NCBI GenBank assembly: GCA_041752635.1
Contig: JBGSWC010000324.1
Span: forward strand, 408 to 64,407
Reading direction: 5' to 3'
Source: Pirellulales bacterium
GTDB taxonomy: Bacteria; Planctomycetota; Planctomycetia; Pirellulales; Lacipirellulaceae
DNA length: 64,000 nt
Each line of letters begins with the position of its first letter. The stretch's first letter is position 1. Below the pieces are notes generated by a model. The model saw only the letters and a list, made by a program, of their open reading frames with translations. It did not search any database and had not been told where the DNA came from. Of the stretch, positions 9,506 to 33,268 are shown one piece after another. The translations under genes and the position numbers were made by a program.

Positions 9506-10048
9506 GTGAACATCGTTGAACTTCATAAAGGCAAGCACCTTTCTCTTGTCGCCACCGGGACGTGGGAATTTGCCACTCGCAACACCAGCCGACCGGCAGT
9601 CGGTATCGTGGCGATTACCGACGACGGCAACGTCGTGCTCGTCGAGCAATTTCGCCCGCCCGTCGGTCGCACTGTCGTCGAACTTCCCGCCGGGCTCTGT
9701 GGCGACATCGCTGGCAGCGAGAACGAACCTCTGGTTGTCGCCGCCCAGCGCGAGCTGTTCGAAGAAACGGGGTACGTCGCTATTCGCTGGACCGAGCTCG
9801 GCGTCGGTTATTCATCTCCTGGACTCACTGACGAAGCAATCGTTTTGTTTCTGGCCGAGGGGCTGCAAAAAACGGGGGAGGGTGGCGGCGACGATTCAGA
9901 AAATATCACGCTCTACGAAGTGCCGCTCGACCGCGTCATCGAATGGCTCAACGATCGCGGTGCCGCGGCTGATCTGAAATTGCTAGCGGGGTTGTATGCG
10001 GCCGAACGACATTTGGTGACGAGGCACGCGAACCAGCTTCAGAGTTGA
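9506..10048 (+). CDS. NUDIX hydrolase (ADP-ribose pyrophosphatase-like)
   Basis: Nudix box GLCGDIAGSENEPLVVAAQRELFEETGY. GTG start at 9506. Confidence 0.8.
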   Translation: MNIVELHKGKHLSLVATGTWEFATRNTSRPAVGIVAITDDGNVVLVEQFRPPVGRTVVELPAGLCGDIAGSENEPLVVAAQRELFEETGYVAIRWTELGVGYSSPGLTDEAIVLFLAEGLQKTGEGGGDDSENITLYEVPLDRVIEWLNDRGAAADLKLLAGLYAAERHLVTRHANQLQS

Positions 10049-10187
10049 TTGAAAAATGCAAAATAGCAAATGCAGAATGCTTTGGGGGATCGCGTTGCTT
10101 CGAATTCCATTTTCATTTTGCACTTACCCAAATGTCATCGCAGTTTCTTCGGCGACTCAGTGGTAAACTTCCGCTGATTGGATCGTC

Positions 10188-12143
10188 CTAATTGTCCGAC
10201 TCGCGGGCAAAATAGGCGTGCCCCGTGTTGGTATTACGTCGTCCCGGTGCTCCACGCCACCACAGCTCGACCGGCTTTTCGTTGGGCTCGTCGACGTCGG
10301 TGACGACCGTACCGATTTGCACGCTCCGCCATTCGCCCCTTTGCAAGTTGTCAAAGGTAGCGGTCGGAATAGCGAATTCAATATCGTATCCACTTTCAGT
10401 TCGCTTTCCGGCAGCTTTCACTCCTTCGAAGGGTTGGCCACCACGGAGCCGTTTGGCGACGAGGCGAACTTCGCCGTTCTCGCCGGGGGCTTCGGCTTTC
10501 ACCGAAATACCGTCCCAATTGAGTGCCGGTTCGCTACGGCGTTGTTCGGGCAAACGGGGATCGATGAGCAGTTCTACAGCGTCTCCCCCATTACCAGCTT
10601 TGTCGTCAAGCACTTTGTCGTCGGTCACGCGGACGGCGACGTAGAGCATTTCGCCTGTGGTGCCCGTCTGGAGTGTGTAGCTCAAGTCGCCGAGTCCGTT
10701 GTAGTTCTCGACCGCACCGGCGGTGACGAAGTCATTGCCGCCGTAAACGCCGGTCGACTGAGGATCGACCATGCCGTCGAGATCGGGCATCGCGGCAAGT
10801 GTCGGAATGGGGAACTTCGCATCGATCACCACCGGCACCGTTCGCTCAGCACGCAAGATTTTCTCGCCCTCGGTCGTGGCAACCTTGGCGGTCAGCACGG
10901 TTTGCGAGAGACTGGGAAAGTCGATCTCTTCGGCAAAGCGAATCTTAACGGTCTGGGTTGCCGTGCCGCTCGGCGCGGCGGTCAACTTGATTGTGTTCGG
11001 CTCGACCGTAAGTCCGCGAATGGGCAGTCCATCGAGTTCGGCGGTTGCCTCGACGGGCGTGTCGAACTGGTTGGTCAAGCGAATGCTGATTTCGCCCTCC
11101 GTGAAACCACTGCCGCGATCAATGAGAATGGGCGCGACTTCGAGTCGAACATCGGTAAGGAACGAGCGAAACCGCTCGGCACTTTTCTCCGTCACAACAT
11201 CGGGAGGCAGAATACCATCGAGGCGAATATTGACGACGTGTGGTCCGTCTTTTTCCATCGTCAGCCAGGTAACGTGGTCGAATTCACCCCAGTCGTTGCC
11301 GCGGAGTTGCGAACCGCCGCCGGTGGTGGCCAGCGCGTAATACTGCGAATCGTTCCGCTCGTACTGCACGTAGTGGTGAATATGGCCGGCAAAAACCGTG
11401 TGCTTTCGCTCGGCCAACAGCGCTTCGACCTTTTTCCAATTCGTGTTGTCGGTTGCCGACGAGGCGAGCGAACGCTCGGCGTAGGTCCACAGCGGCTTGT
11501 GGATAAAAACGAGCGTCCAGCGGGCATCGACGCTCTGCTGCATATCGCTCTTGAGCCAGTCGAGTTGTTCTTCGCCAATGTGGTCAACCGGGTCTTCGCT
11601 ATTGAGGCAAACAAAATGAACATTTTTGTAGTCGAACGAATACCACTCGCGACCAAAGTGCTCGCGCCACACTTTGTGCATCATCGGATTGGTAAGATCG
11701 TGATTACCAGCGACGAAGAAAAACTTCATATCCATCTGGTCGATGAAACCGAGAAACTCTTTCCATTCGTTCTCAACTTGCCGGCGATTGTCGGAGTAGC
11801 CTTCGATCAAATCACCGACCGACATCACAAACTCGGGCCTCAGCATATTGACCTTACGGACACCGTCCATCCAGATACCCGGGCGGTGCCCCCCCGTGCG
11901 ATCGGTCATGATGGCGATCTGAAATCTCTCGTCATCGTTCAGCACCGGTGCGTCGGACCACGGTTTCGGACCTTCGATGGCCGGGAGCATCACCCCCTTC
12001 GCCAATTCTTCTGTGGCGGCGAGTTTCGCGGTCACTTGCTCGAGTGCTTCGTTATGTTCGTGGCCGTCGTGACCCTCGTGAGCGACGCAAACGATAGGGA
12101 CCGCGACAAAAGTCAGTACGCAAACCAAATGGCGTAGACGCAT
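10188..12143 (-). CDS. secreted calcineurin-like metallophosphoesterase with a C-terminal CBM9/DOMON-like domain
   Basis: Signal peptide MRLRHLVCVLTFVAVPIVCVA followed by His-rich HEGHDGHEHNE. Phosphoesterase motifs MTDRTGG, GDLIEG, GNHD, VFAGHIHH. The C-terminus (LYVAVRVTDDKV..DAVELLIDP) resembles family-9 carbohydrate-binding-like modules. ATG 12143; the ORF opens at TTG 12200. Confidence 0.8.
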   Translation of the reverse strand: MRLRHLVCVLTFVAVPIVCVAHEGHDGHEHNEALEQVTAKLAATEELAKGVMLPAIEGPKPWSDAPVLNDDERFQIAIMTDRTGGHRPGIWMDGVRKVNMLRPEFVMSVGDLIEGYSDNRRQVENEWKEFLGFIDQMDMKFFFVAGNHDLTNPMMHKVWREHFGREWYSFDYKNVHFVCLNSEDPVDHIGEEQLDWLKSDMQQSVDARWTLVFIHKPLWTYAERSLASSATDNTNWKKVEALLAERKHTVFAGHIHHYVQYERNDSQYYALATTGGGSQLRGNDWGEFDHVTWLTMEKDGPHVVNIRLDGILPPDVVTEKSAERFRSFLTDVRLEVAPILIDRGSGFTEGEISIRLTNQFDTPVEATAELDGLPIRGLTVEPNTIKLTAAPSGTATQTVKIRFAEEIDFPSLSQTVLTAKVATTEGEKILRAERTVPVVIDAKFPIPTLAAMPDLDGMVDPQSTGVYGGNDFVTAGAVENYNGLGDLSYTLQTGTTGEMLYVAVRVTDDKVLDDKAGNGGDAVELLIDPRLPEQRRSEPALNWDGISVKAEAPGENGEVRLVAKRLRGGQPFEGVKAAGKRTESGYDIEFAIPTATFDNLQRGEWRSVQIGTVVTDVDEPNEKPVELWWRGAPGRRNTNTGHAYFARESDN

Positions 12144-20999: not shown

Positions 21000-22214
21000 T
21001 CAGACCCATACAAAACAAAAGCGACCATCGACGAACTCCGCTTCGACTGCGTCTTGCACTTCACATTGCGAGTTGCCGCGCAACAGTTCGGCCACGTCGG
21101 GCGAAACAAGCAGTGTTTCGAGGTGCAACGTGTTGGGAATAATCACCCAGCCATGCTCTCCATTGGTGCCCGCGAGGTGATGAAATAACTCTTCGTCGTT
21201 TGTTACCACGGTATGAATATCGGCGCGACGCATGTCACCGGTGGCGCGGGTGTTGATGAGCGTCTTTTCCATGTTGATGGCGTCGTGCAGTCGTTGCGTG
21301 ATGTAATCGGCGAGCCCCACGCCAATGGCGTTGCCTTGCGATTTTTCGGAAAGCTCGAGCGCGACAATCGTGCCAACGTGTGGCTTCGGCAGGTCTCCTT
21401 CGTCGTTGAGCCCGCGGCGGCCAATGACGTTGGTATCCATCCCGGTGCCGCTAAAGTTTTTGCCCATGGTGTTCACGATGAGGACGTTGATGTCGTCGAC
21501 TGGAAGTCGCGCGAATAATTCTTCGTGTCGCTCGAGGAGCTGCGGTTCGCGCGCGGGAATATCGGCGGCAGCGACCGCGTGCAGTTCGCTCGTCTGGTCA
21601 AAGCCATCTTCGAGAATGGCGAGCCCCGCCCAAATCTTGCCGGTCGCCAGAACTTGCCGTCCCATTTCGATGAGATTCGCGCAGCGATCGGGAGCGAGGG
21701 CCTTGTGGAACGTTTCGGCTCCACCCAGTTTGCCCAGCCCAACGACCATCATCTTCGTCAGACCACTCGCGAGCGTGCCAGCGAAACAGGTGTGGAGCTT
21801 CACGCGGTTCACGATCAAGACTCCCGCCGATTCATAGGCATGCCGGTCCATATGAACGTCCCCCGTCGCGACATGTCCAACGACGACCGTTTCCATGCTC
21901 GAGCGAATCGGCATTCCGATGGCGGCTTCGTCGAAGCCTAGCGACTCGACCATCGCTCGTTGGCCTTCGGCCGTCGCGCCGTTGTGAGAGCCCATCGCAG
22001 GTACGGCAAACGGAGTCGCCCCCTGGTCGCGGAGCCAGTCGCCCGCTGTGTGCAGAATGGTCGCCAGGTTCGCGATACCACGACTCCCCACTGTGATAGC
22101 CACTTCGCCCTGAGGTACGTCGAGATTGAGCCCGTCGAGCTGTTGGCGAACCGTGCCCGCAACGTCGCTCAGCGGGTTGGAAACGAGCTGCTGGCGAACT
22201 TTGACGAACTTCAT
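21000..22214 (-). CDS. LarA-N / DUF2088-like domain protein (lactate-racemase-related family)
   Basis: The pattern [29 protein letters not shown] resembles the LarA N-terminal domain. The family assignment is from memory of that pattern only. Confidence 0.55.
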
Positions 22215-22328
22215 GGCGTCTTCCCACTGCGTGACGTGCCCGAGTGTAACGGGCTGGGGCTGTGCGGTTATTCCGCATATAATAGCAGGTTTACCGATTT
22301 TCCCCTACTCTCGCCACTGCGACGATTC

Positions 22329-26090: not shown

Positions 26091-27338
26091 TCAGGCAGGC
26101 ATCATCGCCATTTGCCGCTCGAGCCAAGGTTCGAGGTCATCAAAAATCTCCGCGACTTGCGGATCGAAGATGCGGCCGATTAGTAGGTCGGTCAGTCGCC
26201 CGCTGTGGTGGGGATGCTCACCAATAAATTTGCCGACGCGAAACTCGCCCGAGTAGAAGGCGTGAACCAGTTTGCGGACGCGCGCCGTCGCCTCTTTGAA
26301 ACTTTCTGACCACGCACCGATCGTGGCGGCCGAGGTGTCCCCCGTCTGGAGACCTCGAACGACCGCATCGGCGGCGAGCTGGGCGCTCTTGAGCGCGAAG
26401 TAAACGCCCGACGAATAGACCGGATCGATGAAACCCCACGCGTCGCCGACCAGTACCCAGCCATCTCCGGCGGCCTGTTTGGTGAGGTACGAGAATTCTT
26501 TGGCGACACGAAGATCGTCGCAGGCCGTTGCACCGGCGACACGTTGTTCGACTCCTTCGCACTTGGCGAGTTCATCGGCAAAGACTTGCTCGGGCGTGCC
26601 ACGCCCCTTAAGCAGATAAGAGTGGTCGCCAACGACTCCCACGCTAACGAGGTCGTTTGCCTGAGGGATGTACCAAAACCACGCTTGCTTATCGTTGGTG
26701 TGAAGGATGATGGTCTTTACGCCACCGCCACTCACTTCGCGGTTGGCCCCCCGATAATGCCGCCAAATGGCCGCTTTCTTGAGATCGGGATTGATTTGCT
26801 TAAGACCTCGCTTGTTGGCAATTAGCGACTGCTGGCCAGTCGCATCGATCACCACCTTTGCATTCACGGTTCGACGACCATCACCCGATTCGATGACAAC
26901 CCCCGTCGCGCGATCATTGTCGAAGATAACGTCAACAACTCGGCACGCATCGCGACATTCCGCGCCATGATCGGCGGCATTGTCGAACAACATCTTGTCA
27001 AATTCGGCACGGTCGACATGCCAGGTATCGCTGCAATCGCGGGGGTCGTGATCGCGGAAGAAAAATGGGGCCGATTCGCGCCCGCTGTTACTAACGAACT
27101 GCACGCCCACTTTCTTTGAGAACTCGCTAGCGTTGAGTTTATCGAGCAATCCCAAACGCTCGAACACCCAATAGCTCTCGGGCATCAGCGATTCGCCCAC
27201 GTGTGGTCGAGGCATTTTTTCGCGTTCAAGCAGCAGAGTCGAGAATCCCGCATCGGCGACTATCGTCGCTGCCGCCGATCCAGCGGGGCCACCGCCGATA
27301 ACAATGCAATCGAACGAATCGTTGTTTTGAGTAACCAT
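26091..27338 (-). CDS. FAD-dependent halogenase-like oxidoreductase (WxWxIP class)
   Basis: VIGGGPAGS dinucleotide fold, HVGESLMP, KKVGVQF, WFWYIP (WxWxIP) and GDAWGFIDPVYSSGV. Confidence 0.7.
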   Translation of the reverse strand: MVTQNNDSFDCIVIGGGPAGSAAATIVADAGFSTLLLEREKMPRPHVGESLMPESYWVFERLGLLDKLNASEFSKKVGVQFVSNSGRESAPFFFRDHDPRDCSDTWHVDRAEFDKMLFDNAADHGAECRDACRVVDVIFDNDRATGVVIESGDGRRTVNAKVVIDATGQQSLIANKRGLKQINPDLKKAAIWRHYRGANREVSGGGVKTIILHTNDKQAWFWYIPQANDLVSVGVVGDHSYLLKGRGTPEQVFADELAKCEGVEQRVAGATACDDLRVAKEFSYLTKQAAGDGWVLVGDAWGFIDPVYSSGVYFALKSAQLAADAVVRGLQTGDTSAATIGAWSESFKEATARVRKLVHAFYSGEFRVGKFIGEHPHHSGRLTDLLIGRIFDPQVAEIFDDLEPWLERQMAMMPA

Positions 27339-27359
27339 ATGTTTCAGCCTGGGGACATT

Positions 27360-27926
27360 TTAGGCGCGAACAATTTCTAACAGGTCGACGCGAGGCTGGC
27401 CTGCGACGCGAATCACCGCAGTACGGCCATAAATCACCTCGCCGCTCTGCAAACCGAGATTTGTGCGAAGGACTTCACTAGGCTCAATCCGCCACAGTGC
27501 GAGCAACTCAACTTCTCTCAGCAAATTATTCTCAATGAGAATTCGGCCAAGCGGTGCCTCATGGGACTCGATCGCCTGGCGCACGGATGGCCGCAATCCG
27601 GCAAGATCGATTCTCATGATTCCAAATTGTACGATTCGGCCGTCGGAATGACGAGCGAGGAGACTATTGCGCGTATAGAAATCGGCACACGAGCACTCCG
27701 CAAGCACACACACGTTTACTGGTTCGCCGTGAAACTCTTCGAGCGACACGGTCATGTGATCGTGGTGCGAGAGGAGTCGCCGGTAGTCGGGCGGCAATTC
27801 GCGCGAATCAACAGCTTGAAATTTACCCAATTCGTCGATGTTGGCAAAAAACTTGCCAACCAATTCTTGCATCGGCGTGCGATACGTAGCCGATTGAGCG
27901 GCCGATAACGTGGCGGGACTCGGCAT
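27360..27926 (-). CDS. chorismate pyruvate-lyase-like (UbiC/DUF98 fold) protein
   Basis: Landmarks align by eye with E. coli UbiC: LLSHHDHMTVSLE, DGRIVQFGIMRI, APLGRILIEN, IYGRTAVIRVAGQPRVDLLEIV. ATG 27926. A GTG at 28037 would overlap the upstream gene. Confidence 0.6.
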   Translation of the reverse strand: MPSPATLSAAQSATYRTPMQELVGKFFANIDELGKFQAVDSRELPPDYRRLLSHHDHMTVSLEEFHGEPVNVCVLAECSCADFYTRNSLLARHSDGRIVQFGIMRIDLAGLRPSVRQAIESHEAPLGRILIENNLLREVELLALWRIEPSEVLRTNLGLQSGEVIYGRTAVIRVAGQPRVDLLEIVRA

Positions 27927-27988
27927 GGGGGCCTGCCGGGCGATGGTGGACGGGACCCTGTTAGAATAGCAACTTGGGCGGCCGGCGG

Positions 27989-28870
27989 CTACTTCGTGGT
28001 CCGCCGCAATGGCGGACCGTGATGAAATTCTGGCCACATCGCATTTTTGGCAACGGCTTCAAACAGGAACTCAACGCCCTTTCTGACAACGTTGTGGCCA
28101 GCCTGACGCGCGCCAGCGAGGAATAACACCACGTAGGCGGTGTGCGGCACAATGCCGCCAAAACTACCGTCGCCCGCCTGCAACTGCGAAAGCTCTGCGA
28201 GTGCAGTTGGAACGACGCGGTTGCGCGCCCGCCGTCGCCAGGGATTGCGGGTTGGCACACAGCGATGCATCGCCAAGCTAGCCGACAACAGTAAGGCACG
28301 GTCGCTGGCTTCAACTCGGCCCAAGTTTCCCCCTGCCTTTCGAGGATATTCGAGCGGTGACAATGGCACGCGATGCCACGGAATCTTATCGGCAAGTGCC
28401 AAATGGGCGAGTTGCGCGATTTCGATCGCCGAGGGAGTGTCGGTTGGGGTGGCGAGCTTTGCCAATCCGCCACGTTTTTCAATGAAATGCTTTGTGCGTG
28501 CGCCGACGTCACCGTTGCAGTTTGGAACTCCCGAAAGCTGGAACGCGGCAACGACGCTGAGCGTGTCGGCAACTGTCGAAGCGGCCCCCGCATGCGGCCC
28601 CCACCCTCCGTCGGCGTTTTGGCAGCGGGCGAGATTTTTGAGGCTATCGACCAACAGTTCGCTCAAGTCACCCTGATAGGCTTTGGTCAGCGAAAGCTCT
28701 TGGTCGCAGTTTGCGAGTTCAACGGCGTGCTGTTCAGCCATGACGAGAGCTGAAACAGCGACAGCAGTTACGCAAGGGGCCACCGCAGAAGCTTCGCGAC
28801 TGGGCAGCCGGAATATCGTATCAGATTGATGGTGTCTCGATTCGGTAACACCGGACGCAAGGGGCGTCAT
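27989..28870 (-). CDS. prenyltransferase/squalene-cyclase-repeat (alpha/alpha toroid) protein
   Basis: Two QW-like repeats, CQNADGGWGPH and LQAGDGSFGG. Hydrophobic N-terminal segment AVAPCVTAVAVSALVMA. ATG 28870. Confidence 0.6.
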   Translation of the reverse strand: MTPLASGVTESRHHQSDTIFRLPSREASAVAPCVTAVAVSALVMAEQHAVELANCDQELSLTKAYQGDLSELLVDSLKNLARCQNADGGWGPHAGAASTVADTLSVVAAFQLSGVPNCNGDVGARTKHFIEKRGGLAKLATPTDTPSAIEIAQLAHLALADKIPWHRVPLSPLEYPRKAGGNLGRVEASDRALLLSASLAMHRCVPTRNPWRRRARNRVVPTALAELSQLQAGDGSFGGIVPHTAYVVLFLAGARQAGHNVVRKGVEFLFEAVAKNAMWPEFHHGPPLRRTTK

Positions 28871-29141: not shown

Positions 29142-29774
29142 TCAGGCACTAATAAAACCACCCAACACACAAGCACGGGTTAGTTCGGCGACCGAAGTAA
29201 CGCCCAGTGTTTTGTAAATCTTGCTACGTCGAGCTTCGACAGTGCGGATACAGACACCTTGTTGTTTGGCGATCTGCTTATTGGGCACACCGTCGAGAAC
29301 GGCCGACAAGACCTCGCGCTCCTTTTCGTTTAGTTGCTCGAGTTGTGTGGCAATTTCTTGACGCGATTGACGAGCTTCGTAATCGCGTTGGCTTTTCTCG
29401 ACGCCGAGCCGTACTGATTCGCGAAGTTGGTGCTCGCTACATGGCTTGTCGAGTACCGTGAGAGCGCCGTGGCGCATCGCTTCGACGACCATCGGCGTTG
29501 TGGCGTAGGCCGTGACCACGACAGCGGGGCTCTGATCGCCCGCATCGTGAAGCCGCCGCAGTAGCGTGCTCCCGCTGATGCCGGGCAACCGATCGTCGAC
29601 TAACAGCACGTGTGGCCCGTTGGGACGATAGGCATCGAGAAACGCCTCGGCGCTGGCGAAGCTGCTCACTTCATAGCCGGCCGGCGCGATTAGTTGTTCG
29701 AGTGCTTCGCGTGTACTCGCGTCGTCCTCGATAACGAAAACGGTGGGATTGGGGGTTGCGTTGGTTTGCACCAT
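29142..29774 (-). CDS. response regulator, receiver plus LuxR/FixJ-type HTH
   Basis: VFVIEDD..LLVDDRLPG receiver; EREVLSAVLDGVPNKQIAKQQGVCIRTVEARRSKIYKTLGV HTH. ATG 29774 is preceded by GAGGAG. An alternative ATG lies at 29825. Confidence 0.9.
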   Translation of the reverse strand: MVQTNATPNPTVFVIEDDASTREALEQLIAPAGYEVSSFASAEAFLDAYRPNGPHVLLVDDRLPGISGSTLLRRLHDAGDQSPAVVVTAYATTPMVVEAMRHGALTVLDKPCSEHQLRESVRLGVEKSQRDYEARQSRQEIATQLEQLNEKEREVLSAVLDGVPNKQIAKQQGVCIRTVEARRSKIYKTLGVTSVAELTRACVLGGFISA

Positions 29775-29900
29775 GACATGACTCCTCGCAGGACAGAGAT
29801 GATAGAAAAGATTCCGGCAGGCCATAAACTAGCTGTGCCCATAGAATAGTACGGGTCAGCGAAGCGATTGGACGTTGCCTAAACCGGCAAATAACTGCAC

Positions 29901-30629
29901 CTAGCCACACTCCCCATGTGGGTAGCCACACTCCGCGCTCGGTCGCGATGTGGCAGTCAACAACTTGATGACATAGGAACAATACCCGTGTGTCGCGGCG
30001 TGAACTTTCAATTCCCGAGATTGTCGGCTTCGACGACCATCCGAACGAGTTCGGCTAGCGAATCGGCTTCCATCTTTTGAAAAGAGATTTTGTCGGCGTA
30101 CTTCGACAGTACGAACGCTTACGTCGAGCTCGTGGGCGATCTGTTTGTTCATTTCGCCGGCAACCATCCGATCGAGCACTTGTCGCTCCGCCACAGTGAG
30201 CGTCGCTAGTCGCTCGCGAACCTGGCGGACGCGTTCCTCTGACTTCCAGCGCTCGGCATCGTCGCGGAGCGCGCCCCGAATGGCGTCCCACAGCTCACCT
30301 TCGCGGCAAGGTTTCTCGAGCAAGGTAAACGCTCCCGCGCGCATCGCCCGAATTGTCACATTTGTGTCAGCGTAGCCAGTCAACACCACAACCGAAATGA
30401 GGCAACCCCGCTCGCGCAACGTTTCTTGCAATTCGAGACCGCTCATTCGCAACATCCGAACATCGGTCACCAAGCAGCCAGGGCGGTGACCATTGTAAGC
30501 AGCCAGAAACTCCTCGGCCGACGAGTAGGTGATGGCTTCGATACCCATCTCGGCCACGAGCGCGGCAACTGACGCGGCCGCCACGGGGTCGTCGTCGACA
30601 ATATAAACTCGGTCGATGATGTCGCTCAC
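29901..30629 (-). CDS. response regulator, receiver plus LuxR/FixJ-type HTH, with an apparent 1-nt frameshift near the 3' end
   Basis: VYIVDDD..LVTDVRM receiver; AERQVLDRMVAGEMNKQIAHELDVSVRTVEVRRQNLFSK HTH. After K(30074-30084) the frame runs into a 65-aa R/S-rich tail. The adjacent frame reads MEADSLAELVRMVVEADNLGN* and ends at 30008. The GTG start overlaps the kinase stop (GTGA). Confidence 0.8.
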   Translation of the reverse strand: MSDIIDRVYIVDDDPVAAASVAALVAEMGIEAITYSSAEEFLAAYNGHRPGCLVTDVRMLRMSGLELQETLRERGCLISVVVLTGYADTNVTIRAMRAGAFTLLEKPCREGELWDAIRGALRDDAERWKSEERVRQVRERLATLTVAERQVLDRMVAGEMNKQIAHELDVSVRTVEVRRQNLFSKDGSRFASRTRSDGRRSRQSRELKVHAATHGYCSYVIKLLTATSRPSAECGYPHGECG

Positions 30630-33268
30630 ATCGGTACACTTTCGTGAGGAAGTTCGATGGTAAATGTCATTCCGCCCTCATCGTTCTTGTCGGCTCTAAT
30701 ACTACCATGATGGGCTTCGACAATCGACTTACAGATGGCCAGCCCCATCCCCATGCCGTCTTCCTTGGTGGTCACAAACGAGTCGAACAGTGTGTAATGA
30801 TCGATGTTGGCCGGCGGTCCAGTGCCGTTGTCGATTACCGCTAATTCGACGGAGTCTTCAAGTTCCCGAGTCCGAAGGGTTACGCGTGGCATTTCGTCGG
30901 CTATTCCTTCAACCGACTGCAACGCATTCCTCAGCAGATTCACGACGACTTGCTGAATCTGAATTGGGTCGCCCAAGATTTTCGGTAATGCCTCGTCGAA
31001 ATCAAAAGCAATCCGCACACCGGGACGTTTCATGGTAACTGACTGCAGTTCGGCCGCTTCGCGAATCACGCCGTTCAGGTCGAACTTCTGCAAGTTCGCT
31101 TTTCGCGGGCGGCAAAAGTCTCGCATCCGACGAATGATTTCAGCCGCCCGGTGAATCTGTTCGTCCACTTGCACCAGCATTGCCTTAGCGCGGACACACG
31201 CGTCTTCGTCGCCGCTGCTGATCGCCCGGCGGCTGGCGGCCGCGAAAGTGGCGGCCGCATGCAGCGGCTGGTTGATTTCGTGGGCGACACCGGCGACAAC
31301 CTCGCCCATCGTCGCGAGTCGCGCTAGGTGCTTCAGTTGTTCCTGCAGCTTTTGAATTCGCTCGGCATCTTCGACCTCGCTGGTGATGTCGCGGTTTACC
31401 CCCACCATTCTCAGCGGCCGGCCCGCGTCATCGCGCTCGATGACTTTGCCAATCGAATGGAGCCAATGGTATTTGCCGGCGGAATCCTGCATGCGATATT
31501 CGCTCGTGTACTGTTCGGTGCCACCATTCAAGTGGTCGTTGAGCACCTCCCGAACGGCGGCAAGGTCATCGGGATGAATACTTCCTTCCCAGTCCGAACG
31601 TCGACGAAAGTGGCTTTCGTCGGGTGAACCATAGGTGCGCAACCAAGCATCGTTCACGTAAACAAGCCCGGTCAGTAAGTCCCAATCGAAATAACAAGCA
31701 GCTATGACATCGACAACTTGGCCAAGTCGTTCTTCGCTCGCGGCGAGCTCCATCTCGGCCGTGCGATGCTCGATAGTGTGGACAAATATTTCACCCAATA
31801 ACCGCAACAGCGCGATCGAATCGGCCGATAGCTGGCGATACTCGTGCTTTGTCGAAAGGCCGAAGAAACCCTTGAGTTTTCCGTCGTCGACCACGGGGAT
31901 ATTGATGAACGATTTGACGCCGAATGCGTGAAAATCTTGGTAGGCTTTGTCGGCCTCCGGAGGAAGATCGTCGATTCTCGGCACCCACAGCACTTCGCCT
32001 CGTCGAAGCTGGCTCGACGCCCACGGGAATTCATTGACATCGATATCGGTTAACCCGGGTGGAAACTCATCCATCTGCGGCGCCGACCACACGCTATGGG
32101 CGATCGCCCGCTGGCGGCTGTCGTCGATCAAGAAGAGGAAGGCTCGGTCAAAGCGGGTAAATTCCGCAACTTGTTTCAGTCCCTCCATTAATCCGGTCTC
32201 TGCCGCAGTCAGCGGAGACTTGATGAAATTGCTACTAATGTCGACCAACAGGGCTTCGAGTTTACGCAAGTATTCGATTCGCTCGTTATTGACTCGCTCG
32301 TCGGTGATGTCGCGCCCCACGCTCTGGTATTCGACAACCGTCCCGTTAGGGGCAAAGATTGCGCGATCGGACCACTCGACCCACCGCAACTCGCCATCGC
32401 CCCTTAGCATTCGGCGACGGTCTTTCGAAACGGGGTTCGCAGGCGTTAGTCGCCGCAGTTTCCGCTTGAATTTTGCTAAGTCGGCAGCGTCGATTAGTGA
32501 CCACAACGGCTCGCTCAACAGTTGTTCACGAGTGCGGCCCGCAAACCGGCAGACAGCTTTGTTGATCAACGTCGCGACGCCATCGGGGCGCCAACGCATG
32601 ATGTATTCATCTTGATCTTCGATGAGCTGGCGATAGAGCTGTTCGCTCTTGGCTCGCGCCGACTCGGTATGGGCACGATTGAGTAGGTTGACAAAGATCG
32701 ACGCCAGTACGTTGAGTAAGTGTTGCGTATGATTGAGCCAAGGGCCGACCGTTCCAAGGCAAGCGAGCCCGATATAGCCAAGAAAATGGTCCCCCGTCCG
32801 CATCGGTACATAGATGAACCGAGTCAGGCCGAGTTGCACGAATAGCTCTCGTAAGCTACCCGACTCGGTCGGCAGATCGCTTAGCTGGGCGACGGCAATT
32901 GTCTTGCCGGCGCTTAGCCGATCGTATCCCCACTGAGAGATCGCAACGGGAATGCGAGGTGTCTTATCGGCGAACGATAGCGAACTGTCACGTTGCCATT
33001 CGTAAATCAGTTTGGCTGTCGTGTGATCGCTGTCGAGCAGATACATAAAGCTGCGGTCGACACCTAGATATTGGCCCACTCGCTGCAGTGCATCGGATAT
33101 GTGGCGGTCGATCTCTCTTGTCGGCGAATTAATGAACCGAGTGCTCAGTTCTACAAGCAGAGCCAATAGCCCTGGATCACTACCGCCACGTAGCGCTGGA
33201 AGCAGCCAGGCGCTTTCGTCGGCTAGTGTTTCGATTGGCTGTGGCTGGAGCTCCGACATCGAACTCAC
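30626..33268 (-). CDS. soluble GAF-PAS-GAF-PAS sensor histidine kinase
   Basis: H-box VAGVAHEINQPL. N/G boxes NLLRNALQS and DNGTGPP..GMGMGLAICKSIV. No TM segment seen. GTG 33268 or ATG 33259. Confidence 0.9.
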   Translation of the reverse strand: MSSMSELQPQPIETLADESAWLLPALRGGSDPGLLALLVELSTRFINSPTREIDRHISDALQRVGQYLGVDRSFMYLLDSDHTTAKLIYEWQRDSSLSFADKTPRIPVAISQWGYDRLSAGKTIAVAQLSDLPTESGSLRELFVQLGLTRFIYVPMRTGDHFLGYIGLACLGTVGPWLNHTQHLLNVLASIFVNLLNRAHTESARAKSEQLYRQLIEDQDEYIMRWRPDGVATLINKAVCRFAGRTREQLLSEPLWSLIDAADLAKFKRKLRRLTPANPVSKDRRRMLRGDGELRWVEWSDRAIFAPNGTVVEYQSVGRDITDERVNNERIEYLRKLEALLVDISSNFIKSPLTAAETGLMEGLKQVAEFTRFDRAFLFLIDDSRQRAIAHSVWSAPQMDEFPPGLTDIDVNEFPWASSQLRRGEVLWVPRIDDLPPEADKAYQDFHAFGVKSFINIPVVDDGKLKGFFGLSTKHEYRQLSADSIALLRLLGEIFVHTIEHRTAEMELAASEERLGQVVDVIAACYFDWDLLTGLVYVNDAWLRTYGSPDESHFRRRSDWEGSIHPDDLAAVREVLNDHLNGGTEQYTSEYRMQDSAGKYHWLHSIGKVIERDDAGRPLRMVGVNRDITSEVEDAERIQKLQEQLKHLARLATMGEVVAGVAHEINQPLHAAATFAAASRRAISSGDEDACVRAKAMLVQVDEQIHRAAEIIRRMRDFCRPRKANLQKFDLNGVIREAAELQSVTMKRPGVRIAFDFDEALPKILGDPIQIQQVVVNLLRNALQSVEGIADEMPRVTLRTRELEDSVELAVIDNGTGPPANIDHYTLFDSFVTTKEDGMGMGLAICKSIVEAHHGSIRADKNDEGGMTFTIELPHESVPM

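Follow-up and report, generated by a model that had tools for sequence, protein, structure and literature searches.

A three-gene operon on the minus strand of a 64,000-nucleotide (nt) stretch of DNA from a Pirellulales bacterium represented only by a metagenome contig (JBGSWC010000324.1; the whole stretch is called the window below) carries a lyase–halogenase pair that, by sequence comparison, corresponds to BaaA and BaaB of Planctomycetales strain 10988. With moderate confidence, we take the operon to encode a reduced Baa-type pathway leading from chorismate via 4-hydroxybenzoate to halogenated 4-hydroxybenzoate. From upstream to downstream, it comprises a toroid gene resembling the N-terminal part of squalene–hopene cyclase (SHC) (27989–28870; 293 amino acids (aa); Pfam SQHop_cyclase_N); a BaaA-like gene with the chorismate-lyase fold (27360–27926; 188 aa from ATG; fold assigned with AlphaFold2 (AF2) and Foldseek); and a gene for a BaaB-like flavin-dependent halogenase of the two-component type (26091–27338; 415 aa; Pfam Trp_halogenase). 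The coordinates of the open reading frames (ORFs) place all three genes on one strand with gaps of 62 nt (toroid/lyase) and 21 nt (lyase/flavoprotein), as a sequence-only reading of the window had reported, and all motifs quoted in that reading are found in the three proteins; the three-gene operon is real. The ratios of nonsynonymous to synonymous substitution rates (dN/dS) show strong purifying selection on all three genes. The lyase ORF as listed begins with GTG, encodes 225 aa, and overlaps the upstream gene; homologues use an ATG, which yields the 188-aa protein.

For the proposed pathway, the activities of the two enzymes, their substrate, the halide, and the regulation are predictions. 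The 188-aa protein would strip pyruvate off chorismate, which leaves 4-hydroxybenzoate. The 415-aa enzyme, provided with FADH2 by an unlinked flavin reductase, would then convert O2 and halide to hypohalous acid, and Lys76 would steer this acid to the ring carbons ortho to the hydroxyl, so that 4-hydroxybenzoate acquires one or two halogens. O-methylation might follow, catalyzed by an unlinked enzyme, as proposed for 3,5-dibromo-p-anisic acid; neither an O-methyltransferase nor a flavin reductase adjoins the operon, in agreement with the sequence-only reading. The 293-aa toroid protein would be a conserved non-catalytic remnant of the SHC-like cyclase that relatives encode ahead of the lyase, and the kinase and regulators encoded upstream possibly govern expression. 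The lyase–halogenase pair persists as a module, since 33 of 58 related loci have the two genes side by side, seven of them without any cyclase gene. Halogenated 4-hydroxybenzoate seems the most likely product, because the pair outlasts loss or truncation of the cyclase and because a strain bearing the pair makes a dibrominated hydroxybenzoate derivative.

The 415-aa flavoprotein is assigned by sequence to the flavin-dependent halogenase family, the placement relying on ranked scores against family models and Protein Data Bank (PDB) sequences. It carries GGGPAG at residues 15–20, GESLMP at 48–53, FSKKVGVQF at 73–81, WFWYIP at 220–225, and GDAWGFIDPVYSSGV at 298–312. The Pfam model Trp_halogenase (PF04820) matches with 102.4 bits (3.6e-29; curated cut-off 21), and the top NCBIfam match is the CmlS halogenase model (205 bits, 1.9e-60), the score being under the strict cut-off of that model. 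The ten top PDB matches, from 1e-40 to 1e-60, are flavin-dependent halogenases and one uncharacterised flavoprotein (3nix); they include 8zop (1.2e-59), ChlB4, 3nix, CmlS, PltA, Bmp2, CndH, Mpy16, and RadH. The sequence-only reading had called the protein halogenase-like and named kinship with geranylgeranyl reductases or UbiH-type hydroxylases, together with loss of the conserved Lys, as grounds for dropping the call. In the same PDB ranking the top geranylgeranyl reductase reaches 4.5e-15, against 1e-40 to 1e-60 for the halogenases, and PrnA about 2e-4. The Lys diagnostic of halogenases is the tunnel Lys (Lys76 of CndH, Lys79 of PrnA). Lys76 of the window protein falls on residue 76 of the CndH chain in a gap-free alignment and is likewise paired with the KxG-segment Lys of ChlB4, 8zop, PltA, and Mpy16. 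Together with Trp220, Trp222, Ile224, Pro225, and the GDAxxFxDPxxSxG core, it is invariant in 38 syntenic orthologues. The dN/dS of this gene is 0.03. The halogenase call is thus sustained by the Pfam score, the block of PDB halogenases, and the invariant Lys.

The 188-aa protein contains LLSHHDHMT, APLGRIL, and YGRTAVIRVAGQPRVDLLEIV, and we read it, from its predicted fold and conserved residues, as a putative divergent enzyme of the chorismate-lyase type. The earlier call of chorismate lyase stands for the fold and, more tentatively, for the catalytic residues but not for Pfam membership: scanning Pfam and NCBIfam gave zero matches, including to Chor_lyase (PF04345) and the Rv2949c-like model (PF01947), so that the check with Chor_lyase and DUF98 models proposed in the sequence-only reading left the window protein unmatched. 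A profile of the family compared with solved structures finds a single match, the DUF98 protein 2nwi (E 0.005). The AF2 model (mean predicted local distance difference test, pLDDT, 94) retrieves with Foldseek, in this order, 2nwi (6e-8; template-modelling score, TM, 0.64–0.77), UTRA effector domains, and Escherichia coli UbiC (1g1b and 1fw9, 3e-4). A weak alignment with hhalign to UbiC, at a probability of 18%, pairs HMT with SMT, Arg86 with the catalytic Arg76, PLGR with PLGR, and GR with GR; Glu184, in the last strand, is placed to be the counterpart of the catalytic Glu155 of UbiC. Arg86 and Glu184 are invariant in the family alignments A1 and A3, down to 32% identity. A word-indexed search yields 917 homologues, many of them named chorismate-pyruvate lyase by the Joint Genome Institute (JGI). 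In a representative library of 1.84 billion sequences the family numbers 1,674 at E<=1e-3 and >1,200 at E<=1e-10, counted as representatives of 50%-identity clusters. By sequence, the protein appears to belong to a separate, largely Pirellulales family beyond the reach of the Pfam models. An attempt to bridge this family to Pfam was abandoned: the representative-library search returned only close relatives, and the Pfam matches remained marginal. A role in menaquinone or ubiquinone synthesis was likewise rejected; the conserved upstream radical-SAM gene is of the SPASM type, neither MqnC nor MqnE, UbiB occurs at only five loci and a YbgC-type thioesterase at 14, and there is no recurrent UbiA-type gene.

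A precedent for the pair has been published. Planctomycetales strain 10988 makes 3,5-dibromo-p-anisic acid (Panter et al., 2019, bioRxiv 10.1101/723874), and the chorismate-lyase-like BaaA with the adjacent halogenase BaaB was proposed as its source, without genetic proof; the reported fold matches are 2NWI and UbiC for BaaA and CmlS for BaaB, and a methyltransferase is absent from the baa locus (bioRxiv 10.1101/723874). The brominated planctomycete metabolite that the sequence-only reading mentioned is therefore real, BaaA/BaaB are the counterparts of the window pair, and, because of this 2019 proposal, the core idea of that reading was already in print. Among the related loci, the chromosome of strain 10988 (CP043547.1; L076) contains an adjacent pair with 44% (lyase) and 51% (halogenase) identity to the window proteins. 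As the paper gives no coordinates, we infer from the genome record and gene order that this pair is the published baaA/baaB. In that chromosome (L076, 3955–10078), a single strand encodes an SHC-like cyclase (694 aa, PDADDT), a DUF116–polyprenyl synthase (615 aa), BaaA, and BaaB; beyond the cyclase gene, in the upstream direction, come genes of the HemN-like radical-SAM, GcvH-like, and ferredoxin-like types. The main text and supplement of the 2019 paper, as searched, are silent on any terpene, cyclase, or synthase genes next to the pair (bioRxiv 10.1101/723874), and the comparative gene context described here appears to be new.

The first gene of the operon is, judged from its sequence, probably a shortened leftover of an SHC-like class II terpene cyclase gene that is full-length in relatives. 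QNADGGWG and QAGDGSFGG repeats are present in the protein; the sole Pfam match is SQHop_cyclase_N (1.7e-10). The AF2 model is a helical toroid (pLDDT 81; predicted TM, pTM, 0.81), and its top Foldseek matches are drimenyl-diphosphate synthase and SHC. In a tblastn search the protein covers residues 14–328 of a 697-aa cyclase-like protein of Adhaeretor mobilis (L028), which has both SHC domains and a PDADDT segment aligned to the DVDDT acid motif of squalene–hopene cyclase. The alignment stops short of the motif position in L028, and the toroid protein has no DxDD. The paired beta and gamma toroids of a complete cyclase are not realized, only the N-terminal (gamma-like) domain being present, and no C-terminal or catalytic cyclase half is found elsewhere in the 64-kb window; alone, the protein cannot act as a cyclase. 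It terminates just past a conserved GVEFL...WP segment, where the approximately 300-aa homologues from several lineages end too; 15 short-toroid homologues were found, and 13 of the 14 besides the query have 280–334 aa. The dN/dS relative to L001, the closest relative, is 0.07, with dS saturated. This value, the shared endpoint at about 300 aa across lineages, and the intact ORF led us to reject a decaying pseudogene; the sequence comparison indicates that the gene is maintained and is not debris. The sequence-only reading erred on two points here. What had been read as a possible membrane anchor, TAVAVSALVMAEQH, belongs to the toroid as one of its conserved core helices (pLDDT >90; Thr35, Ala38, Ala41, and Leu42 invariant), so an anchor was discarded; and the gene does not lack a counterpart, since relatives including strain 10988 carry a full SHC-like cyclase gene before the lyase.

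We compared 80 loci labelled as Pirellulales or other planctomycetes, the exception being L045, a contig of a metagenome-assembled genome (MAG) binned as Granulosicoccus; arrangements were counted in the 58 loci with sufficient flank. Ahead of the lyase lies an SHC-like gene in 51 of these and a polyprenyl synthase gene in 35, always on the same strand, and the halogenase directly follows the lyase on the same strand in 33. The synteny of the three genes, a check proposed in the sequence-only reading, is thus not uniform. Full cyclase, DUF116-synthase, lyase, and halogenase occur together at 15 loci; 14 have the same row without the halogenase; nine have full cyclase and lyase, with neither synthase nor halogenase; seven have lyase and halogenase only; five are of the window type (short toroid gene, lyase, and halogenase); five have full cyclase, synthase without DUF116, lyase, and halogenase; and three have other arrangements around the lyase. 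The synthase is usually fused to DUF116, and its best family matches are short-chain (C15–C25) prenyl-diphosphate synthases; literature searches on DUF116, and on the halogenase structure 8zop, brought up no informative paper. The complete DxDD is present in 31 of 47 full-length cyclase homologues and its last two Asp in 35; among the cyclase homologues with an assigned arrangement, 29 of 40 keep the last two Asp. At DUF116-fusion loci these two residues are retained in 23 of 25 cyclases, and at the six loci with a synthase lacking DUF116 (L020, L023, L030, L041, L063, and L069) the DxDD is lost in all six; since the lyase tree groups these six together as a single clade, the combined state probably arose in a single event. 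Recurrent downstream genes are a GT4 glycosyltransferase, a sodium:solute symporter, and a kinase–regulator pair; neither a synthase nor a glycosyltransferase gene is found in the 64-kb window. In L028, a small DUF3311 protein and a sodium:solute symporter are encoded after the halogenase (10032–12076). Such genes occur in about 13 loci and not in the window; the weaker family matches of the symporter include monocarboxylate transporters, and the pair could move a benzoate-type compound.

The presence of the halogenase follows a habitat trend, read off the record names and with no phylogenetic correction. Plainly marine records (ALOHA, NAT130, NORP48, Adhaeretor, Botrimarina, strain 10988, and deep-sea MAGs) all retain it. 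The loci lacking it are mostly MAGs named for soil (SMAG), groundwater, or peat (palsa), or have uninformative names, and they fall mainly in one large clade of the neighbour-joining lyase tree. The trend fits halide availability.

Upstream of the operon and on the same strand, as the sequence-only reading had stated, Pfam assignments identify a GAF/PAS histidine kinase (30626–33268) and two LuxR/GerE-type response regulators (29901–30629 and 29142–29825), which may control the operon. Homologues of the kinase and regulators lie no more than 8 kb from the lyase gene in about 20 of the 80 loci. They are placed upstream in L001–L003 and L013, and downstream elsewhere; the upstream order, also that of the window and its nearest relatives, points to a rearrangement in which the regulators stayed close to the cluster. 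A GAF/PAS kinase and one or more LuxR-type regulators occupy 13625–16394 in L028, and such genes elsewhere are downstream of the glycosyltransferase. On the other side of the operon, metH is convergent with the flavoprotein gene and ends 15 nt from its stop. The metH ORF as listed has a far-upstream TTG start and overlaps a 404-aa minus-strand ORF (21960–22300, 21000–22214); the true start is probably about 100 codons downstream of that TTG, and several long antisense ORFs within metH seem to be spurious products of the high G+C content. No RNA family was detected when the window was scanned with Rfam, and the scan for promoters and terminators gave a signal no better than that of shuffled sequence.

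Several observations weigh against a Baa-type pathway. The cyclase-like gene (51/58) is a more constant neighbour of the lyase than the halogenase is (33/58), and about half of the lyase family is without a halogenase. The likeness of the lyase-like protein to known lyases is slight, with the hhalign probability for UbiC at only 18% and PF01947 matched by only two of 37 relatives (E 0.044). The flavoprotein is 60–80% identical across genera, unusually high for an enzyme of secondary metabolism. PltA, Bmp2, and Mpy16, which are among the nearest solved halogenases, act on carrier-protein-bound substrates, and no carrier protein is encoded at the operon. The genes for BaaA and BaaB are still described as postulated in a 2025 review. 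Finally, QhpG, a true monooxygenase that is structurally nearest CmlS, retains both Trp residues, and WxWxIP alone is for that reason no proof of halogenation. The flavoprotein might accordingly be a hydroxylase on the halogenase scaffold, like QhpG or LodB, acting on 4-hydroxybenzoate or another substrate. The NCBIfam models for QhpG (1e-38) and LodB (2e-32) do match it, many of its orthologues carry the LodB annotation, and it is also retained in some freshwater and soil lineages. We nevertheless consider this improbable, given 205 bits for the CmlS model versus 133 for QhpG, the PDB halogenases at 1e-40 to 1e-60, the halogenase Lys invariant in 38 orthologues, and the lack of any LodA- or QhpC-type substrate protein encoded near the gene. 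Still less credence goes to the 188-aa protein being a UTRA-like binder of small molecules devoid of lyase activity, e.g., a sensor or a partner in substrate delivery, as could be argued from the unmatched chorismate-lyase models and from the UTRA effector domains, which the fold search ranks after DUF98 and before UbiC: the protein lacks a DNA-binding domain and stands on its own, its top structural match is the DUF98 lyase-like protein, and the putative counterparts of the Arg, Glu, and PLGR positions of UbiC do not vary within a family of >1,200 representatives (E<=1e-10).

The tight, older tie of the lyase to the cyclase and synthase genes leaves room for a terpenoid or meroterpenoid reading, which is of interest given that the SHC-like cyclases of planctomycetes are acknowledged as a group whose function is unknown. 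In this alternative the lyase and halogenase stem from an ancestral Pirellulales pathway of that kind, and the window holds its decayed version: 4-hydroxybenzoate, halogenated or not, would be joined to the chain made by the DUF116–polyprenyl synthase and cyclised by the SHC-like enzyme, while the short toroid protein would bind or scaffold the same partners. Besides the cyclase and synthase genes recurring on a constant strand before the lyase and the DxDD retained in most full-length homologues, this would agree with the full four-gene row of strain 10988, the GT4 glycosyltransferase often found downstream, the description of planctomycete SHC-like proteins as having an unknown function and probably a non-squalene substrate, and the conservation of the short toroid gene under purifying selection. 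The chief argument against it is the absence of any conserved aromatic prenyltransferase (UbiA-type or ABBA) from the recurrent neighbours at the 80 loci; moreover, the synthase and the catalytic cyclase domain are absent within the 64-kb window, and the sole metabolite seen where a strain has the complete cluster is dibrominated anisic acid in free form rather than a meroterpenoid. On balance we regard this origin as rather unlikely. We are equally doubtful of its extended form, in which the BaaA-type lyase primarily supplies the aromatic precursor of an SHC-like/DUF116-synthase pathway to a 4-hydroxybenzoate meroterpenoid, optionally halogenated and glycosylated, with dibromo-anisic acid as a side branch and the toroid protein as a non-catalytic partner of the lyase or halogenase.

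A two-gene proposal underlies the one halogenated aromatic metabolite that has been linked to genes of planctomycetes. The comparison shows the pair to be a module strongly conserved in many genera of Pirellulales and no curiosity of one strain; in most lineages, the producer strain included, a class II terpene cyclase of divergent sequence is encoded in the same row. The substrate of that cyclase is an acknowledged open question, for which the gene row offers a lead; the window, with lyase, halogenase, and a gamma-only toroid, is a natural reduced version that separates the two halves of the problem.

Among known systems, E. coli UbiC and Rv2949c/DUF98 have the fold and, by tentative alignment, the Arg, Glu, and PLGR positions in common with the 188-aa protein, at a similarity below Pfam detection. 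The phenol- and pyrrole-type halogenases (8zop, ChlB4, CmlS, PltA, Bmp2, CndH, Mpy16, and RadH) are matched by the flavoprotein over most or all of its length and have the GxGxxG, GESL, catalytic Lys, WxWxIP, and GDAxxFxDPxxSxG motifs in common with it; unlike this set, the window protein is short (415 aa) and has no carrier protein or partner reductase nearby. The cyclases adjoining the lyase in relatives are divergent SHC homologues, mostly DxDD-bearing and next to a polyprenyl synthase, and they may belong to the published SHC-like clade of class II enzymes in planctomycetes, whose function is unknown and whose substrate is probably not squalene (Santana-Molina et al., 2020; PMC12324236); unlike them, the window protein is the N-terminal toroid domain alone. 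The bmp bromophenol pathway of marine Pseudoalteromonas, compared by description, follows a like logic, in that a lyase (Bmp6) feeds 4-hydroxybenzoate to a flavin brominase (Bmp5); Bmp5 is a single-component enzyme that is also decarboxylating. The cytochrome P450 coupling enzyme of bmp is absent from the window operon, and the similarity of BaaB to Bmp5 is about 44% according to the 2019 paper (bioRxiv 10.1101/723874). The remaining known system is that of strain 10988. There, a full cyclase (694 aa, DADD) and a DUF116-synthase precede the pair, whereas the window has lost the synthase and retains only 293 aa of the cyclase; in both, no methyltransferase accompanies the pair, the fold matches are the same, and a lyase-like gene is followed on the same strand by an adjacent halogenase gene.

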